A stretch of DNA of 64,000 bases from the NCBI GenBank assembly GCA_016222905.1, contig JACRPZ010000002.1:5874-69873 (forward strand), read 5' to 3'. Numbering within the stretch: the first letter of the stretch is position 1; every line of letters begins with the position of its first letter. Below, piece after piece: positions 20,576 to 27,927 of the stretch. The position numbers and the translations under genes were made by a program. The notes beneath the pieces were generated by a model that saw only the letters and a program-made list of their open reading frames with translations, was not told the origin of the DNA and did no database searches. This DNA is from Nitrospirota bacterium. Lineage in GTDB: Bacteria; Nitrospirota; Thermodesulfovibrionia; UBA6902.

Positions 20576-21604
20576 ATGAAAATCCTCATTATAAAGCCCA
20601 GTTCTTTGGGGGATATTATCCACGCGCTCCCATTTCTGAAAGCTGTTAAAGATAGGTTCCCTGATGCCTCTGTTGACTGGGCAGTAAGCAAAAATCTGCG
20701 CGGAATTCTCGAAGATAATCCTCTGATAAATGAGCTTATCGTCTTTGATAAGGATTCATGGAAGAGCATCAGGAATATTCCCAAGACGTCAGGAGATATA
20801 TCCCGCTTAAGAAGAACCCTGAAAAGCAGAAACTATGACATTGTGGTTGATCTTCAGGGACTGCTGAGAAGCGGCCTCATGTCGCTCTCAACCCCTTCTC
20901 CTTTGAGAGTAGGCTTTGCGGATGCAAGGGAAGGGAGCCGTTTCATGTATAACAGGAAGGTTTCGGTCAATGGGATTACACACGCGGTTGATAAGAACCT
21001 TGAGATTGCAAAGGCAATCGGCGCAGCGGTAAAAAGGGCTGAGTTCCCGCTGAACATTGACGATAAGTCGAGGAGAAAGATAAAAGCACTTTTGGGTGAT
21101 GTAAAGGAATACATCCTGATTCTTCCGTCTGCAAGATGGTCTTCAAAGAGATGGCCGCCTGAAAACTTTGCGGCGCTTATTTCAAAGCTCTCCATCCCAT
21201 GTGTAATTTCCGGCAGCGGAGCTGACAGAGAAATCTGCCTCAAACTTATAAAAAATATATTTGGAACCGGACAGACAACAAAGCAGCCAAAAATAATCAA
21301 CCTCTGCGGTGAGACAAGCCTGAAAGAGCTTACGGCGCTGATTGAAGGCGCAAAGGCAGTAGTGAGCAATGATTCCGGCCCCATGCATATTGCCGCTGCT
21401 CTCAATAGACCGGTTGTTGCGCTCTTCGGCCCGACCGATCCCTCAAAGACCGGGCCTTACGGCTGGCAGAAGAATAAAAACCTGAAAGTGATCAAGACAG
21501 GCGTTTCATGCAGTCCATGTTTTAAGAAGAGGTGCAAAGAGCCTCTCTGCATGACTGAGATAAGTGCTGAAAGAGTCTTTGATAAACTGAGGGAATATCT
21601 TTGA
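20576..21604 (+). CDS. ADP-heptose:LPS heptosyltransferase (GT9 family; WaaC/WaaQ-like).
   Basis: 'MKILIIKPSSLGDIIHALPFLKAVKDRFPDASVDWAV' and C-terminal 'SNDSGPMHIAAAL' shared with the upstream GT9 gene. Confidence 0.75.
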   Translation: MKILIIKPSSLGDIIHALPFLKAVKDRFPDASVDWAVSKNLRGILEDNPLINELIVFDKDSWKSIRNIPKTSGDISRLRRTLKSRNYDIVVDLQGLLRSGLMSLSTPSPLRVGFADAREGSRFMYNRKVSVNGITHAVDKNLEIAKAIGAAVKRAEFPLNIDDKSRRKIKALLGDVKEYILILPSARWSSKRWPPENFAALISKLSIPCVISGSGADREICLKLIKNIFGTGQTTKQPKIINLCGETSLKELTALIEGAKAVVSNDSGPMHIAAALNRPVVALFGPTDPSKTGPYGWQKNKNLKVIKTGVSCSPCFKKRCKEPLCMTEISAERVFDKLREYL

Positions 21605-22362
21605 GACAAAGAAGATCAAACGGCAAAGAACTTTGGCAAATCTTCATCTTTCTTTCCATTTGCTGTCTGTTCTGCACTTTATGCCCCGCATATGCGTCTG
21701 ACTCTGCAATTAAAGCAAAATTCGTTTATAACATCTACTGGTCGGGCATCAAGGCCGGCGAAGCAACTCTTAGTTATGAAAATACCCCTGAAGGCATTAC
21801 CATAACATCAACGGCGCAGTCAGCTCCTTTCATCTCCATCTTTTACAAGGTTGATGATTTATCACAGAGCATTCTTGCCCCTGATGGTCATCCAAATAAA
21901 TACACAGTTAAGATACGGGAAGGACACCATAGGAAAGACAAAGTAACATATTTCAGCGCAAAATCAGAAAGCAACGCGCAAAAGGTGATTTATACTGACA
22001 AGCTAAAAAATGAAAGGGTTGAATTCGATCTGGAGAAACAGGCATTTGATCCGCTCTCCGCAGCGTATGAAATAAGCAGGCGCAAGTTAATAACCGGCAG
22101 GTCTGAGTACATTGATATATTTGACAATAAAAAGGTCTATAACACGGAAGTACAAGTGCTTGGCAAAGAGAGGATAAACACCCCGGCAGGAGAATTTGAT
22201 ACAATCGTCATAAAGCCTCTCCTTAAGTCAGAGGGTGTCTTCCTTCAGAAGGGGGAAATATATATCTGGCTTACCGATGATGAGAAGAGGATACCGGTTA
22301 TGTTAAAAAGCAAGGTAAAGATCGGAAGTTTCACGGCAGAATTAGCGGAAGGGGTGGAGTAA
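21601..22362 (+). CDS. Secreted/lipoprotein-like DUF3108-family protein (LPS-cluster associated).
   Basis: Signal peptide. The 'YNIYWSGIKAGEATLSYE' pattern resembles DUF3108. Start overlaps the upstream stop. Confidence 0.4.
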   Translation: MRQRRSNGKELWQIFIFLSICCLFCTLCPAYASDSAIKAKFVYNIYWSGIKAGEATLSYENTPEGITITSTAQSAPFISIFYKVDDLSQSILAPDGHPNKYTVKIREGHHRKDKVTYFSAKSESNAQKVIYTDKLKNERVEFDLEKQAFDPLSAAYEISRRKLITGRSEYIDIFDNKKVYNTEVQVLGKERINTPAGEFDTIVIKPLLKSEGVFLQKGEIYIWLTDDEKRIPVMLKSKVKIGSFTAELAEGVE

Positions 22363-22709
22363 AGCTGAGGCTTGGAGATTAAACCCAAATAATGCAGACA
22401 TTGTTCATAAATTAGTATGTCAAAAACATACAAAAGTGAGGAAGATAATCTTATTTACATTCGCTCACTTGAAGTGAGCTTTGCTTTTAATTTAACTCGA
22501 TGAATTTTTTATTAAAATGATGTTTAAGTTTTTACATGAAAATATACGCTGGTACTTTGATTATAATTACGTTAAGGTATCGAAAAATAAATTAGAGGCT
22601 TCGCCTCAATGTATGGATAATCTTATTAATTAAATTGCTATACTTCGTATAGCTTGCATTTATTCACAACATCTGCATTATTTCAAATGCATTTTTTGGA
22701 TTAAGAATT

Positions 22710-23483
22710 ATGCTTTCTGTTGCCATAATCACTCACAACGAAGAAGAGAATATTAAAGACGCCCTTGAAAGTGTAAAATGGGCGGATGAGATTGTAGTCG
22801 TTGATTCTTTCAGTACTGACAGGACAGTGGAGATTTGCAAGAAATATACTGATAAAGTCTTTGTTTTCGAGTGGCCGGGTTTTGCAGAGCAGAAGAATAA
22901 AGCCGTTTCATTGACAACACAGCCGTGGGTGCTTGTGCTTGATGCTGATGAAAGGGTTACAGAGGCTCTAAAGAATGAGATTCTCAAGGCAATTAGAGAC
23001 CCGTACCCCTCCCCCAACCCCCTCCCTCAAGGGGAGGGTGCAAGGGGGAGGGTGGATGGTTACTATTTAGCGCGTAAAAACCATTTTGCCGGAAGATGGA
23101 TAAGGCACGGAGGCTGGTGGCCTGATTATACACTGAGGCTTTTCAGACGCAGCAAGGGATCCTTTCAGCCAAGAGAAGTGCATGAGTCAATAAAGATCAA
23201 CGGCAAAACAGGTCATTTAAAGAACCCTCTTGAGCATTTCACTTATAAAGATACAAACGATTATCTGACGCGAATGGAGAACTACTCAACGCTTGCGGCA
23301 AAAGAGCTTTATAAAGAAGGCCGCCGCGCCTGCATCTTTGATATAATGCTCAGACCTGCCGCCACCTTCTTCAGGATGCTCTTCCTTCAGGCCGGCTTCC
23401 TTGACGGAACCTATGGTTTTAAGCTGGCTTACCTCTATTCCCGTTATACATTCAACAAATATTCAAAACTGAGGAGAATGTGA
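22710..23483 (+). CDS. Family-2 glycosyltransferase (LPS core type), with a 20-codon in-frame insertion of a palindromic repeat.
   Basis: 'MLSVAIITHNEEENIKDALESVKWADEIVVVDSFSTDRTVEI' and 'LVLDADE' (DxD) are GT2 signatures. 'PYPSPNPLPQGEGARGRVDG' is encoded by the repeat. Confidence 0.8.
   Translation: MLSVAIITHNEEENIKDALESVKWADEIVVVDSFSTDRTVEICKKYTDKVFVFEWPGFAEQKNKAVSLTTQPWVLVLDADERVTEALKNEILKAIRDPYPSPNPLPQGEGARGRVDGYYLARKNHFAGRWIRHGGWWPDYTLRLFRRSKGSFQPREVHESIKINGKTGHLKNPLEHFTYKDTNDYLTRMENYSTLAAKELYKEGRRACIFDIMLRPAATFFRMLFLQAGFLDGTYGFKLAYLYSRYTFNKYSKLRRM
23003..23058. repeat. GC-rich palindromic repeat element inserted in-frame inside the GT2 CDS (cccctccctcaaggggaggg core).
   Basis: Same core palindrome as the intergenic element at 20441-20535. 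Encodes PLPQGEGARG without interrupting the ORF. Confidence 0.6.
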
Positions 23484-23509: not shown

Positions 23510-24106
23510 CTACTTCCTGAATCTTATGAACATATAAAACCCGATGAGGAAAGGGACGAACTTAATAACCATCTCTTCTGAAAATACCCATAGGAATTGA
23601 TAGACAGCCATACGGATTTTACCGACTGAATCAAAACTCTTTCCAACAAGGGCCATGGTCAGCTGCGCTGTCTCACTAAAATAAATAGTAAGGAGATGCG
23701 TGGCAAATAGGAGAAGCAAGCCCTCGATATACGCCCTTCTCTTCACAAATGGGAAGAGGGCGGCCATTATCCCAAACGTCAAAGGGACATTAAAGGTATA
23801 TGAAGAGGTCTTTACCGGTATATCTATTACTAAACCGGCATTATGCCTTAAAGGCCTGAATGTTGCCCGAATTACATCAGTCCCCATCTGAGCAAGCTCC
23901 TCGAACTCAACTTCTTTAGTAAGACTGACCAGACGAGCCGCAATATTTATTACCCCGTAACTATAGATGTCCTTCACCTGTATCCAGAGAAGCAGAGAAA
24001 TAAGATAGGAGACGAGAAAGATGACGGCCGTCTTGAGGATTATTTCCTTATTGAGCGGTTGTTTTATAATTCGTTGCATAGCGAAGATAGATAAAGAATA
24101 CGGCAA
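23510..24106 (-). CDS. Polytopic membrane protein of unknown function, downstream of the exosortase-like gene.
   Basis: Several hydrophobic helices. The 5' end overlaps the upstream ORF by ~30-60 nt, so the start is uncertain. Confidence 0.35.
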   Translation of the reverse strand: MPYSLSIFAMQRIIKQPLNKEIILKTAVIFLVSYLISLLLWIQVKDIYSYGVINIAARLVSLTKEVEFEELAQMGTDVIRATFRPLRHNAGLVIDIPVKTSSYTFNVPLTFGIMAALFPFVKRRAYIEGLLLLFATHLLTIYFSETAQLTMALVGKSFDSVGKIRMAVYQFLWVFSEEMVIKFVPFLIGFYMFIRFRK

Positions 24107-24605
24107 GGGCTACAGCTATCATTATGCCCTGTGCAACATAGATATGGATATAGTAAAAGAGGTTCTTAAAATGAATCCCTGCATATGCCAGCCCCGCTAT
24201 TCTCAGGATGTTCACGGCTTGTATCACCAGAAAACCTGCCAGAACACCAATGACCTTCTTCTTCCAGCCGGCAGGAAATGCGATTACCGCAACGGAATAT
24301 ATCATTACAGCCTCAAGTCCGTTGCATCCGAACTTCACATCCAGGGAAATACCCGGTACGTTTATGATGGATTTATTATAAGCGCAGGGGATGCCGGTTA
24401 CTGCCAAGACCTTTGCTGTAACAAAGACCACACTCTTCGTATAAATATCATCGATATCTATCTTGTTTGTCAGCGGTTTAAATACCAGCAGGAAATAGAA
24501 AAATCCCATTACTGCAAGATAAGTGATAACAAAACGCCCCACGCTTATTTGAGGTTTTGAAGGTTTTACATCTTTTTCAAAGTGGGAATTTTTCTTTTTT
24601 TTCAC
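24048..24605 (-). CDS. Short exosortase/archaeosortase-family-like membrane protein (candidate sorting transpeptidase).
   Basis: 185 aa, multi-TM. The conserved-looking Cys in 'KFGCNGLEAV' and Asn/Arg in 'AVNILRIAGL' match the C...N-x-x-R catalytic arrangement of exosortases. Adjacent to two genes with IPTL-CTERM-like tails. Confidence 0.45.
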   Translation of the reverse strand: MKKKKNSHFEKDVKPSKPQISVGRFVITYLAVMGFFYFLLVFKPLTNKIDIDDIYTKSVVFVTAKVLAVTGIPCAYNKSIINVPGISLDVKFGCNGLEAVMIYSVAVIAFPAGWKKKVIGVLAGFLVIQAVNILRIAGLAYAGIHFKNLFYYIHIYVAQGIMIAVALAVFFIYLRYATNYKTTAQ

Positions 24606-24663
24606 AGGGTATAATGGTCAATTAAAATTTTCAACGACTATGCCTATTCCATAAAGGATATTC

Positions 24664-24699
24664 AAAAAAGGGGCAGGGTTCAACCCCTGCCCCTTTTTC
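24664..24699. terminator. Bidirectional Rho-independent terminator (GGGGCAGGG-loop-CCCTGCCCC flanked by A- and T-runs).
   Basis: 9-bp perfect stem, followed by TTTTT and preceded by AAAAAA. Confidence 0.7.
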
Positions 24700-24715
24700 T
24701 GAAAACTCAAAACAA

Positions 24716-25684
24716 TTAAACTTTCTTATATTTTCTAAGATAATAGATTGACCCAAGCCCTGCAACCGCCATGAAGATTATCATGCCCCACTCGTTCATT
24801 GTTGGGACAGCAATAATACTCCAGTTCACCACTTGGCTTAACTGCAGAGGGGTTAATCCATCCAGAGATCCTGAGGGTAAAGTATCCAGACTGTCAAATA
24901 AGGCTGCTGATGCAATTGCGCCGGCGATTGTATTGCCATTTCCGGTAATATCTCCCAGCCCTGCAAAGAGCATGAGAGATCTGGTTTGGTTAGCAGGAAC
25001 AGAGACATCGTATGTGGCTCCTATTCCGTTAGTAGCCGCGCAGTCAAACACGGTTTGAGTATAAGCGCTTGGAATTACAGATGCGTTAGGTCCATATAGT
25101 ACAGTAGTATTAACGGGATCCGATGGACCGGAATCGCTTGTAACTACCCAGCGGTCATCTGTGGCGAATGTTGTGTCCCCGGATGATGTCATCTGCACTA
25201 TTGAGCTGCTATCAGAACCAAGGTTTACGGGTATATCCACAGTTGCATTTATTGTAGAGCCGGTCGGGTTATTAAGGAATACCATTATCCTTGCCACTGC
25301 AGCGAGGGTGTCAAAATAATACTGGACAGTAACATTCAGACCTGACATGGCCACAGGCCCGGCAGTTATGGTGGTGTCTGTCAGGTCAACTGTGCTTCCC
25401 GGAGCAAAGACAGCGCCGTCTACAAATACCAGATAGGCAGCGTCATACGCGTCACCGGAACCGGCAGGGCCATTGGCATCCCAAATACCAAACCCTGTCC
25501 CTGCTACACAAGTGCCGGTATACGGGGCGCCTGTTGTAGTAGTAATTTGATCAATGCCCGTCCAGCTTGTTGAGAAGAATCCCGGCGACACGGTCTGGGG
25601 AAGGCTGACAGGCGCAGCATAGACATTGGCTGAAGCAAACACAAAGAACAACAATAATACTAAAGAGACTGACCGCTTAAACAT
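24716..25684 (-). CDS. Secreted protein with a C-terminal IPTL-CTERM-like sorting signal.
   Basis: N-terminal signal peptide. The C-terminus 'VPTMNEWGMIIFMAVAGLGSIYYLRKYKKV' has a motif, a TM helix and a basic cluster, resembling the IPTLSEWG-type sorting domain. Confidence 0.6.
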   Translation of the reverse strand: MFKRSVSLVLLLFFVFASANVYAAPVSLPQTVSPGFFSTSWTGIDQITTTTGAPYTGTCVAGTGFGIWDANGPAGSGDAYDAAYLVFVDGAVFAPGSTVDLTDTTITAGPVAMSGLNVTVQYYFDTLAAVARIMVFLNNPTGSTINATVDIPVNLGSDSSSIVQMTSSGDTTFATDDRWVVTSDSGPSDPVNTTVLYGPNASVIPSAYTQTVFDCAATNGIGATYDVSVPANQTRSLMLFAGLGDITGNGNTIAGAIASAALFDSLDTLPSGSLDGLTPLQLSQVVNWSIIAVPTMNEWGMIIFMAVAGLGSIYYLRKYKKV

Positions 25685-25865
25685 AATTTAACTTCTCCTT
25701 TCTTAATGATTATAACCCTGCGCATAAATTGGCGATGATAAAACTAATGACAGACATACCATAAAGATTGCCGCAAGAATTTTTATTCTACCCCCTTCCT
25801 TTTTATCGTTTTATGCTTATTTTGGGAAAGTTTATCATATGCATTTCATTATTAGCAAGAAAAAA

Positions 25866-25897
25866 AGGGCAGAGTTTCAACCCTGCCCTTTTTTGTT
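25866..25897. terminator. Rho-independent terminator (AAGGGCAG-loop-CTGCCCTT plus T-run).
   Basis: 8-bp stem followed by TTTTTT, immediately 3' of the minus-strand gene ending at 25916. Confidence 0.65.
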
Positions 25898-25915
25898 ATT
25901 ACTATGAGCCATTAG

Positions 25916-26944
25916 CTAAACGCTGTGTCTTCTCCTTAAATAATAAATTGCCCCAAGCCCTGCAAGCGCCATGAAGATTATCATGCCCCATTCGTTTATG
26001 GTGGGTACCGTTAGCCCACCGGATACAGCCACTCCCCAAGGGCTATTCAAGGTAGTTGAGCCGCCTGAGATGGTTTGAGCAGGCACCACATTTCCACTAG
26101 CACTTATCGGAAATACCGTGATGCTGTTATTAGGTGGATAGTTTGCCGCATATATTGAGCTTGCATCCACCGCTATCGCAACAGGGTTGTTCAAGGCCGT
26201 TGAGCCTCCTGAGATGGTGCGGGTGGGTGCTGCATTCCCAGTTGCGTTTATCGGGAATACCGTAATGCTGTTAGTATTATAATTTGCCACATAAATCCAG
26301 CTTGCGTCCACTGCTATGCCGGCAGGGTTGTTTAATGTCGTTGAGCCGCCTGAAATGGTGCGTGTGGGAACAACATTTCCAGTGGCGTTTATCGGGAATA
26401 CAAGAATGCTGTTATTAAAATTAGTCACATACATCCAGTTGGCATCAACCGCTATTTCATTAGGGAAGTTTAAGGTAGTTGAGCCGCCTGCAATTGTGCG
26501 AGTCGGCGCGACGTTCCCAGTGGCGTTTATCGGAAATACAACGATGTTATGATTTAAATAATTTGTTACATAGATCCAGTTGGCATCTACGGCTATCCCT
26601 GAAGGGAAAGGGGCAAGGTTTGTTGAGCCTCCTGAGATAGTGCGGGTGGGCGCAACATTCCCAGTGGCGTTTATCGGAAATATGGTGACGCTTCCGTTAT
26701 TATTTGCCACATAAATCCAGTTGGCATCTATATCAACCCCGCGGCAGCCGTTCAATGTTGTTGCCCCGCCGGCGATGCTGGTTGTGGGCGCTGTGTTGCC
26801 TGTGGCGTTACTAGGCCATGTTGCGACACTGGAGCCAATAAAGTTAGATACATAAATATCTGCCCGCGCCTCAAACGGGTAAAGAGAACCGACACTCAGT
26901 AAAACCAAAAAAGATATAACAAAACAAAAAAGCCTCTGCCGCAT
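25916..26944 (-). CDS. Secreted beta-propeller repeat protein (7 x ~42-aa repeats) with a C-terminal IPTL-CTERM-like sorting signal.
   Basis: Repeats of 'SITVFPINATGNxAPTRTISGGSTxLNNPxGIAVDAxWIYVANY'. Tail 'VPTINEWGMIIFMALAGLGAIYYLRRRHSV'. Signal peptide. Confidence 0.65.
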   Translation of the reverse strand: MRQRLFCFVISFLVLLSVGSLYPFEARADIYVSNFIGSSVATWPSNATGNTAPTTSIAGGATTLNGCRGVDIDANWIYVANNNGSVTIFPINATGNVAPTRTISGGSTNLAPFPSGIAVDANWIYVTNYLNHNIVVFPINATGNVAPTRTIAGGSTTLNFPNEIAVDANWMYVTNFNNSILVFPINATGNVVPTRTISGGSTTLNNPAGIAVDASWIYVANYNTNSITVFPINATGNAAPTRTISGGSTALNNPVAIAVDASSIYAANYPPNNSITVFPISASGNVVPAQTISGGSTTLNSPWGVAVSGGLTVPTINEWGMIIFMALAGLGAIYYLRRRHSV

Positions 26945-27228: not shown

Positions 27229-27927
27229 TTATGAGAATAACCTAAAGAGTGCAAAGGTAATGGTTGAACCTAATAACGCCCCTAAAATGACCTCCCACGG
27301 CTTATGTATGCCGACGTAGACCCTGCTCTGTGCGATAAGCACAGCCATAAGAAGCACAAGTAAAGATATGACAAAGTTCTCGCTGAGAAAAACAATCGCA
27401 ACCCATACGGAGAACGCAACGGCGGCGTGGCCGCTCGGCATCCCACCTTTCAGGGGTGTTCCCTTTCCGACAAGCGACTTTGTAATTACTACCATTATGA
27501 GCACCGCTATAAGAGAGATGACGGCTATAGTGTCTTCGGTCTGCTTTGCTACTTCAAGGCCGCTGTAGAAGAGATCTCTGAGCGGTTTAAAGAGGATAAT
27601 ATACCCGATAACAGCTGCGCCTATTGAAGTTATTAAGACCGCTCCCGCGGCGATATCTTTAATCGCTTTTGCTCTCTTGTCATAATCCGGGAAGAGTATA
27701 TTTACAATATCTTCAATTGCGGTGTTAAGCATCTCTGTTGAAATAACAATAATGGAGAGGGCGATTATAAATAAAAAATCCGTGCCTCTTACCCCGATAA
27801 CCAGGCTGAGTATAAGCACCAGCATAGAAGCGTACATGTGATAACGCATGTGTTTCTGCGTTTTTGCGGCATGGAGAATGCCGTTGATGGCGTAATTGGC
27901 ACTCTCAAACCACTTTCTTAAGGGCAT
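27229..27927 (-). CDS. Fusion of a DgkA-family (diacylglycerol/undecaprenol kinase) domain with a PAP2 phosphatase domain.
   Basis: N-terminal 'ANYAINGILHA...EMLNTAIEDIV...AKAIKDIAAGAVL' matches DgkA. C-terminal 'GGMPSGHAAVAF...SRVYVGIHKPWEV' matches PAP2 motifs 2 and 3. Confidence 0.7.
   Translation of the reverse strand: MPLRKWFESANYAINGILHAAKTQKHMRYHMYASMLVLILSLVIGVRGTDFLFIIALSIIVISTEMLNTAIEDIVNILFPDYDKRAKAIKDIAAGAVLITSIGAAVIGYIILFKPLRDLFYSGLEVAKQTEDTIAVISLIAVLIMVVITKSLVGKGTPLKGGMPSGHAAVAFSVWVAIVFLSENFVISLLVLLMAVLIAQSRVYVGIHKPWEVILGALLGSTITFALFRLFS

Follow-up and report, generated by a model that had tools for sequence, protein, structure and literature searches.

The locus is very probably a complete and ordinary XrtH / IPTL-CTERM protein-sorting cassette of a Nitrospirota genome. 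In the window, i.e., the whole 64-kb stretch of DNA that was analysed, the ORF positions place two substrate genes, the enzyme, and its partner within 3.4 kb of the minus strand, in the order substrate 1, substrate 2, xrtH, and the gene of the XrtH-associated membrane protein. The cassette matches the known XrtH system (TIGR04177; TIGR04174 / PF18203; NF041730 / PF28117) on everything tested, and it differs from known XrtH only in degree. The analysis shows family membership, conservation of the motif residues and of the gene pairing, and recurrent adjacency of tail genes and xrtH.

The first-pass annotation of this DNA had proposed a candidate cognate sorting system and had held that the enzyme processing IPTL-type signals was not pinned down. 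The proposal stood insofar as an exosortase-family enzyme does lie beside IPTL-type tails, in an arrangement that recurs, but the system is not new. The XrtH/IPTL pairing had been made in silico and curated before this analysis, with the enzyme named 'exosortase H' in TIGR04177 and 'IPTLxxWG-CTERM-specific' by JGI, and there are also a curated partner family (NF041730 / Pfam PF28117, XrtH_assoc) and a curated substrate model (NF033207, 'midcut-by-XrtH'). NCBI already lists a 100% identical protein under the name 'exosortase H [Nitrospirota bacterium]', and relatives at 55-65% identity carry the JGI name 'exosortase H (IPTLxxWG-CTERM-specific)' by the dozen. Since the pairing, the partner, and the identical protein are already in databases, the claim of novelty was wrong. 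The locus carries little weight as a discovery, the enzyme family, the proposed signal, and the partner all being curated families; it has a modest value as a clean and compact Nitrospirota example with two substrates, enzyme, and partner. Matches to 'exosortase H' in the epsSMASH preprint were discarded as word-start artefacts of 'exosortase homologue'.

Identity of XrtH and its membrane partner

The xrtH gene (24048..24605, minus strand) encodes a 185-aa protein that scores 93.6 bits on NCBIfam TIGR04177 (curated cut-off 86); the alignment covers residues 24-178 and profile positions 2-156 of 158. Of 17 exosortase/archaeosortase models, TIGR04177 gave the highest score and alone among the subfamily models exceeded its cut-off; the 16 others remained under their own cut-offs, save for the generic signature TIGR04178 (52.4 bits; cut-off 23). 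The protein also scores 34.6 bits on PF09721 (cut-off 25.7). The first-pass annotation had named a lack of exosortase HMM matches as grounds for refutation, and this check favoured the exosortase assignment. With 185 aa, the protein lies in the minimal size range of about 160-190 aa and has the minimal form of the exosortase/archaeosortase fold. The GTG start of the gene (24605) should be taken with caution, as the match to the family profile starts only at residue 24. A genome-collection search with the single XrtH protein returned one locus, a Bryobacteraceae XrtH that reaches 133.7 bits on TIGR04177. The XrtH of the window is only 7.6 bits over the cut-off, which marks the Nitrospirota clade as divergent within the XrtH family.

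The first-pass annotation had described this ORF as a polytopic protein with an exosortase-type Cys...Asn-x-x-Arg arrangement, and we have found the corresponding motifs FGC94NG and N132-I-L-R135, together with H154. Cys94, Asn132, Arg135, and His154 do not vary among 29 homologues or in a 19-sequence set, including the Bryobacteraceae XrtH, which is 28-29% identical. By sequence conservation, Cys94, Arg135 (within N132-x-x-R135), and His154 are the putative catalytic residues of XrtH. To our knowledge, ArtA of Haloferax volcanii is the only member of the superfamily that has been dissected experimentally. Cys, Arg, and His have been proposed as the triad of the exosortase/archaeosortase family (Haft, bioRxiv 10.1101/2023.06.07.544157), and the statement of PMC9263693 that cites Abdul Halim 2018 gives Cys173, Arg214, and Arg253 as conserved ArtA residues needed for activity. 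The positions of the helices and of the basic residues are compatible with a periplasmic side for all three conserved residues of XrtH. The AlphaFold2 model, built on the 29-sequence alignment, is poor (mean pLDDT 59.8, pTM 0.43), and only its secondary-structure outline, which is weak, has been used; the model therefore gives no structural support to the topology of XrtH or to a clustering of its Cys, Arg, and His. A PDB profile search detected no solved relatives of XrtH by sequence, yielding only chance matches to HIV protease (E at least 0.09).

XrtH shares its catalytic core (PF09721 EpsH, TIGR04178) with XrtA of the XrtA / PEP-CTERM system, and both systems follow the same logic, i.e., a tripartite C-terminal signal, a motif that abuts the helix, and many substrates per enzyme. 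However, XrtA (TIGR03109) is much larger, having a 261-position profile of which only positions 123-255 align, and the XrtH of the window scores 15.8 bits against a cut-off of 208. The XrtA motif is PEP instead of IPTLxxWG, and the tails of the window lack PEP. In addition, XrtA usually lies in exopolysaccharide loci, whereas none was found flanking xrtH among the neighbouring genes examined, which comprise GT2, DUF3108, and GT9 genes (opposite strand) and housekeeping genes. ArtA of the ArtA / PGF-CTERM system (TIGR04125) has a homologous core with the same Cys and Arg signature positions, but it is archaeal and larger and acts with another motif, and the XrtH of the window scores 23.2 bits against the ArtA cut-off of 75.

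The second small membrane protein that had been noticed next to XrtH is indeed present, and it belongs to the XrtH_assoc family, scoring 42.2 bits on NF041730 (cut-off 35). Its gene (23510..24079, minus strand) more likely starts at ATG 24079, yielding a protein of 189 aa, than at TTG 24106 (198 aa, 23510-24106); in the identical contigs L002-L004 the gene is called as 189 aa and assigned to PF28117. The gene shares 32 nt with the 3' end of xrtH, suggesting that both genes are translationally coupled. The xrtH and xrtH_assoc genes are directly adjacent in all seven related long contigs (7/7), in one of which (L008) the partner stays under the NF041730 cut-off with 26.1 bits.

Substrate proteins and their C-terminal tails

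The two remaining ORFs encode the secreted proteins with related C-termini that the first-pass annotation had pointed out. Substrate 1 (25916..26944, minus strand) is a 342-aa protein that ends with GGLTVPTINEWGMIIFMALAGLGAIYYLRRRHSV, and substrate 2 (24716..25684, minus strand) is a 322-aa protein that ends with SIIAVPTMNEWGMIIFMAVAGLGSIYYLRKYKKV. The IPTL-CTERM sorting tail of substrate 1 spans residues 313-342, VPTINEWGMIIFMALAGLGAIYYLRRRHSV, and that of substrate 2, which is of the same type, spans residues 293-322, VPTMNEWGMIIFMAVAGLGSIYYLRKYKKV. Both tails are tripartite and occupy the extreme C-terminus, where the motif VPT[IM]NEWG abuts the helix MIIFMA.AGLG.IYYL, followed by RRRHSV or RKYKKV and the stop codon; the cores of both tails match in 22 of 25 residues. 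A six-frame scan revealed no further P[TS]...WG tails in the 64-kb window beyond these two. This tail variant, VPT[MI]NEWGMIIFM...YYLR, falls partly under the cut-offs of the curated tail models. Substrate 1 is above the cut-off of TIGR04174 IPTL_CTERM (30.8 bits; cut-off 20.5) and about 1 bit short on PF18203 IPTL-CTERM (19.7 bits; cut-off 20.8); substrate 2 reaches 18.1 bits on TIGR04174, with only profile positions 1-20 aligned, and 12.1 bits on PF18203.

The N-termini, read by eye, resemble signal peptides, MFKRSVSLVLLLFFVFASANVYA/AP and MRQRLFCFVISFLVLLSVGSLYPFEARA/DI, each combining a basic n-region and a hydrophobic core with an A-x-A-like site (VYA/AP or ARA/DI, respectively). The body of substrate 1 is an NHL/lactonase-type beta-propeller with about six internal repeats (PF10282 Lactonase, 51.7 bits; PF01436 NHL, 34.1 bits), and relatives of this passenger domain with the same kind of tail are found in four loci (L022, L054, L110, and L123). 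In substrate 2 no Pfam passenger domain was recognised, and its passenger had matches solely in contigs of the same organism (L002 and L003). The idea of one conserved, dedicated passenger upstream of xrtH was rejected, since the matches of the 322-aa passenger all came from the same organism and the others found upstream of xrtH are diverse.

The terminators described earlier as separators could be confirmed by folding, since a strong hairpin with a T-run follows each substrate gene on the minus strand. That of substrate 1 (approximately 25857..25895) has -24.2 kcal/mol (z = -5.74), and that of substrate 2 (24669..24688), which lies 64 nt upstream of the xrtH start, has -29.8 kcal/mol (z = -5.41); in both cases 0 of 200 shuffles equalled the value. 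A simple terminator scanner picked up only the substrate 2 hairpin because the loop of the other is longer under the scanner rules. Given that terminators split the substrate genes from xrtH, co-transcription is not implied. No Rfam matches were found in the window.

Recurrence of the tails and of xrtH in other loci

The recurrence of the arrangement was studied in a metagenome set of 120 loci (583 kb), picked solely by DNA encoding the tail core EWGMIIFM. In 111 of the 119 scorable occurrences the core is preceded by xP[TS]xx and followed by a hydrophobic stretch, at least two K/R residues, and a stop, and the ORFs that bear the tail span from 53 to 1815 aa. The xrtH gene is also encoded in 18 of the 120 loci, against a chance expectation of about 0.2 in 583 kb, a figure based on our assumption that a genome of about 3 Mb carries one xrtH. 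In 12 loci a tail gene stops at most 100 nt upstream of xrtH on the same strand. These neighbourhood statistics provide independent support for the XrtH/IPTL pairing curated in silico.

Proposed mechanism and alternative readings

As to cleavage by XrtH, the site of the cut, the topology in the membrane, and what becomes of the product, we infer the following sequence of events. The substrates would be exported via Sec by their N-terminal signal peptides; the C-terminal helix WGMIIFMA.AGLG.IYY would hold them in the inner membrane, and the basic cluster (LRRRHSV / LRKYKKV) would remain on the cytoplasmic side. XrtH, small and polytopic, would work in the membrane as a cysteine protease or transpeptidase, and its last three helices are predicted to carry Cys94, Arg135, and His154 at their periplasmic ends. 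The enzyme would recognise [IV]PT[LMI]xEWG where this motif abuts the substrate helix and cut there, so that the anchor helix is removed, and the mature protein may then be released or, by analogy with ArtA, handed over to an acceptor that displays it at the surface of the cell. The XrtH-associated membrane protein, co-translated with XrtH, would be an obligate partner of the enzyme.

The same observations could be read otherwise, the tails being plain uncleaved C-terminal membrane anchors and the XrtH-like neighbour acting elsewhere or being an inactive relic. A full-text literature search found no biochemical or experimental study of XrtH activity, strong terminators lie between the substrate genes and xrtH, and in six of the seven loci on long contigs no gene with such a tail lies within 10 kb of xrtH. 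However, a plain anchor needs no invariant motif at the helix boundary, whereas [VI]P[TS][ML][TSN]EWG, which lies outside the search pattern, is found in 113 of the 119 scorable hits; moreover, the position directly upstream of xrtH is strongly enriched in tail genes, the catalytic-type residues of XrtH are invariant, and dispersed substrates are normal for sortase-like systems, where the pairing is many-to-one (Haft, 10.1101/2023.06.07.544157). We therefore regard uncleaved anchors as very improbable. We give even less credit to the idea that the 185-aa protein belongs to another small subfamily (XrtX, XrtM, XrtY, or ArtB-like) with a different cognate signal, its adjacency to IPTL tails being coincidental. 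The E-values for XrtX (6e-18), ArtB (4e-15), and XrtM (1e-12) are significant and the protein passes the XrtH cut-off by little (93.6 vs 86), but the scores for XrtX (65 vs 170), ArtB (56 vs 150), and XrtM (49 vs 125) are all far under their cut-offs, while XrtH is the top match and no other subfamily model was passed, a partner protein specific to XrtH is encoded in the locus, and the adjacency was found again in 18 independent loci.

XrtH might also cut the tail as a simple hydrolase, the proteins being freed to the periplasm or the medium instead of being re-anchored to a lipid or polysaccharide. Such a hydrolase would be a variant within the reading as a sorting cassette given above, not a separate explanation, and we consider it possible, although rather doubtful. 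The locus has no obvious acceptor-synthesis gene, the small membrane protein being the sole conserved partner, and a one-step transpeptidation is unproven even for the archaeosortase/exosortase enzymes (Haft, 10.1101/2023.06.07.544157). By analogy only, and with no direct bearing on this locus, attachment is favoured by ArtA, which cleaves PGF-CTERM in a reaction coupled to lipid attachment, so that its substrates become lipid-anchored (PMC9263693), and by Methylomirabilis, whose cell-attached S-layer is formed by an IPTL-CTERM protein with a C-terminal tail that proteomics did not detect (PMC8671808). The Methylomirabilis S-layer protein, mela_00855, is close to substrate 2 in size and carries a tail of the same type.

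The DNA alignment and the conservation of the gene pair raise the unlikely, speculative idea that the tail is a portable 3' module and that the XrtH-associated protein is a second component of the reaction, one that might bring the acceptor to the enzyme or clear away the helix after the cut, so that XrtH would be a sorting enzyme of two subunits. In the DNA alignment of both substrate genes, the tail-coding sequence is 85.5% identical and the terminator hairpin 83%, whereas the sequence just upstream is unrelated (30%), suggesting that recombination could bring new passengers into the XrtH pathway.

The exosortase H cassette and its surroundings

The region 23510-26944 carries four genes in a row on the minus strand. 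The first two encode substrate 1 (25916-26944; 342 aa, C-terminal end ...VPTINEWGMIIFMALAGLGAIYYLRRRHSV) and substrate 2 (24716-25684; 322 aa, C-terminal end ...VPTMNEWGMIIFMAVAGLGSIYYLRKYKKV), whose N-termini, judged by eye on the sequence, resemble signal peptides. They are followed by xrtH (24048-24605), encoding a hydrophobic protein of 185 aa with FGC94NG, N132-I-L-R135, and H154, and by xrtH_assoc (23510-24079), a membrane protein gene overlapping the 3' end of xrtH. A strong hairpin plus T-run lies 3' of each substrate gene (-24.2 and -29.8 kcal/mol), both with z about -5.5 and 0 shuffles folding equally well. The first-pass annotation had described two secreted proteins with IPTL-CTERM-like tails, separated by terminators from a polytopic protein with a Cys...Asn-x-x-Arg arrangement and a second small membrane protein, and this description is accurate in every particular.

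The genes around the cassette are ordinary. On its downstream side, the plus strand (20576-23483) encodes a family 2 glycosyltransferase, a DUF3108 protein, and a family 9 heptosyltransferase. The upstream side, on the minus strand, encodes a Trm112-like protein, a diacylglycerol-kinase/PAP2 phosphatase fusion (27229-27927), YbeY, a 7TM-HD protein, and PhoH. Envelope-related genes are found on both sides, i.e., those of the three plus-strand proteins and that of the kinase/phosphatase fusion. There is no exopolysaccharide locus beside xrtH among the flanking genes, the window has no Rfam matches, and a six-frame scan of its 64 kb gave no third tail of the IPTL type.

Identity of XrtH and its partner

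Family scans settle the identities of the predicted proteins. The 185-aa protein has its best match in TIGR04177, exosortase H (NCBIfam; 93.6 bits, cut-off 86), whose profile aligned nearly end to end, and it also passed the TIGR04178 exosortase/archaeosortase signature (52.4 bits, cut-off 23) and Pfam PF09721 (34.6 bits, cut-off 25.7). The curated cut-offs contradict its placement in a different subfamily of small exosortases, as XrtX (65 bits, cut-off 170), ArtB (56 bits, cut-off 150), and XrtM (49 bits, cut-off 125) all scored below theirs; so did XrtA (16 bits, cut-off 208), leaving TIGR04177 as the sole subfamily model passed. The XrtH-specific partner contradicts such a placement as well, since the xrtH_assoc product matched NF041730, the exosortase H-associated membrane protein (42.2 bits, cut-off 35).

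Contigs L002-L004, which match the window exactly, have the gene downstream of xrtH called as 189 aa, with Pfam PF28117 'XrtH_assoc'. Its start is most likely the ATG at 24079 (189 aa) rather than the TTG at 24106, and thus it overlaps xrtH by 32 nt. An overlap of about 32 nt is also present in the comparison loci L007-L011, and this arrangement suggests translational coupling. The two genes form a conserved core, with xrtH_assoc directly 3' of xrtH in 7/7 related long contigs. The start of xrtH itself is uncertain (24541-24605, minus): the GTG (24605) that opens the longest ORF lacks an obvious Shine-Dalgarno sequence, the TIGR04177 match starts only at residue 24, and the homologues have comparably long, lysine-rich N-termini.

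Homologue searches revealed that NCBI already holds a 100% identical full-length protein, 'exosortase H [Nitrospirota bacterium]', and that many 55-65% identical relatives occur in Nitrospirota/Thermodesulfovibrionales and Acidobacteriota MAGs, labeled in JGI as 'exosortase H (IPTLxxWG-CTERM-specific)'. As the identical protein, the relatives, and the partner gene already carry XrtH names, the XrtH-IPTL pairing is the definition of an existing curated family. The XrtH/IPTL-tail system is already known; the first-pass annotation was correct in pairing an exosortase with these tails, and the gap that it expected a mini-exosortase to fill was already taken by this family. The locus adds little as a discovery, since both the system and this very protein are catalogued.

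Among the 19 and the 29 homologues aligned, no sequence deviates at Cys94, Asn132, Arg135, or His154; the set of 19 includes a Bryobacteraceae XrtH with 28-29% identity, which scores 133.7 bits on TIGR04177. These residues fit the Cys/Arg/His triad proposed for the family (Haft, bioRxiv 10.1101/2023.06.07.544157) and the requirement of ArtA for Cys173, Arg214, and Arg253, according to the mutagenesis results in PMC9263693. The basic residues of XrtH lie in the N-terminal KKKK, W114KKK, and the C-terminal RY..K. Hydropathy, these basic positions, and the helices outlined by an AlphaFold model of low confidence (pLDDT 59.8, too weak to show topology) are compatible with a placement of Cys94, Arg135, and His154 where the last three helices reach the periplasm. 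No solved structure related to XrtH was detectable by sequence.

Substrate tails and their association with xrtH

The tail of the 342-aa protein matched TIGR04174 IPTL_CTERM (30.8 bits, cut-off 20.5). The nearly identical tail of the 322-aa protein falls narrowly under the cut-off (18.1 bits) because just profile positions 1-20 align. Substrate 1 carries a beta-propeller passenger of the NHL/lactonase type (PF10282, 51.7 bits; PF01436, 34.1 bits), and the Pfam scan matched 0 families in the passenger of substrate 2. The propeller is made up of about six nearly identical copies of a ~45-aa unit (…VFPINATGNVAPTRTISGGSTTLNxPxGIAVDAxWIYVxNY…), and an N-A-T sequon occurs in the majority of the copies. 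Both substrate genes have a common 3' module in DNA (24650-24830 and 25850-26030, minus): the tail-coding parts (VPT..YYLR) are 85.5% identical and the terminator hairpins 83%, identity is 30% over the 20 nt 5' of the motif, and the two passengers are not related to each other. This suggests that tail and terminator were copied or converted between the two genes.

A tail-bearing gene lies within 10 kb of xrtH in only 1/7 related long contigs, and XrtH substrates are usually dispersed, like those of other sortase-like systems. We scanned JGI metagenomes with the DNA encoding the tail core EWGMIIFM alone, leaving the flanking features outside the search pattern, and found at least 122 occurrences in at least 120 loci (583 kb). 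Among the matches listed, 119 occurrences uncut by a contig end were scored: xP[TS]xx precedes the core in 113 of them (position 1, V in 53 or I in 51; position 4, M in 52 or L in 51; position 5, T, S, or N), a hydrophobic stretch, at least two K/R, and a stop follow it in 114, and 111 have both flanking features. The tail-bearing ORFs among these matches range from 53 to 1815 aa (median 263).

XrtH, called at E <= 2e-18 with an HMM built from a homologue alignment, is encoded in 18/120 tail loci among the matches listed, XrtH_assoc in 14, and both in 13. Of these 18 listed loci, 17 have the tail gene and xrtH on one strand, and in 12 no more than 100 nt separate the stop of the tail gene from the xrtH reading frame downstream of it. 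Only ~0.2 xrtH would be expected by chance in 583 kb, if one xrtH per roughly 3-Mb genome is assumed, as we did; thus, the adjacency in the window is an arrangement that recurs and is not coincidental. Passenger domains vary among the tail loci, indicating that XrtH is linked to the tail and not to one particular protein. The metagenome locus L115 has an XrtH-like match (64.5 bits) within a 450-aa stop-to-stop frame next to an IPTL-type tail gene; this match might represent a fusion protein or an exosortase of another subfamily.

Proposed processing and tail variants

By homology with ArtA/PGF-CTERM and XrtA/PEP-CTERM, the substrates would be exported by Sec, after which the C-terminal helix would hold them in the inner membrane and the basic cluster would stay on the cytoplasmic side. 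The [IV]PT[LMI]xEWG motif, which would sit where this helix meets the periplasm, would be recognized by XrtH, and attack by Cys94 would remove the helix, so that the protein would be freed or passed to an acceptor for surface display. XrtH may act in this step as a hydrolase or as a transpeptidase. It is unlikely that the tails are plain uncleaved anchors, since the motif is invariant at the helix boundary and tail genes are enriched beside xrtH. The S-layer of Methylomirabilis lanthanidiphila is formed by an IPTL-CTERM protein whose C-terminal tail was unrecovered in proteomics (PMC8671808), which is compatible with processing and falls short of proof.

Some tails depart from the common form. 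In the Bryobacteraceae locus L001, a 299-aa secreted protein (7050-7949) encoded directly upstream of a canonical XrtH ends in ...NALGTPALTMPVLAGLALLLAGLGWVLLSKAKAL, with a helix and a basic tail and without the xEWG motif; this C-terminus might represent a diverged signal for XrtH, or else just an anchor with no connection to it. In the metagenome loci L027, L071, and L030, some tails finish at the stop with ...VYYLPTGLHAAGMRRKK or ...VYYLPTGRQA, an LPTG-like sequence that replaces the YYLRR basic cluster after the helix and may be due to chance or to a frameshift variant.
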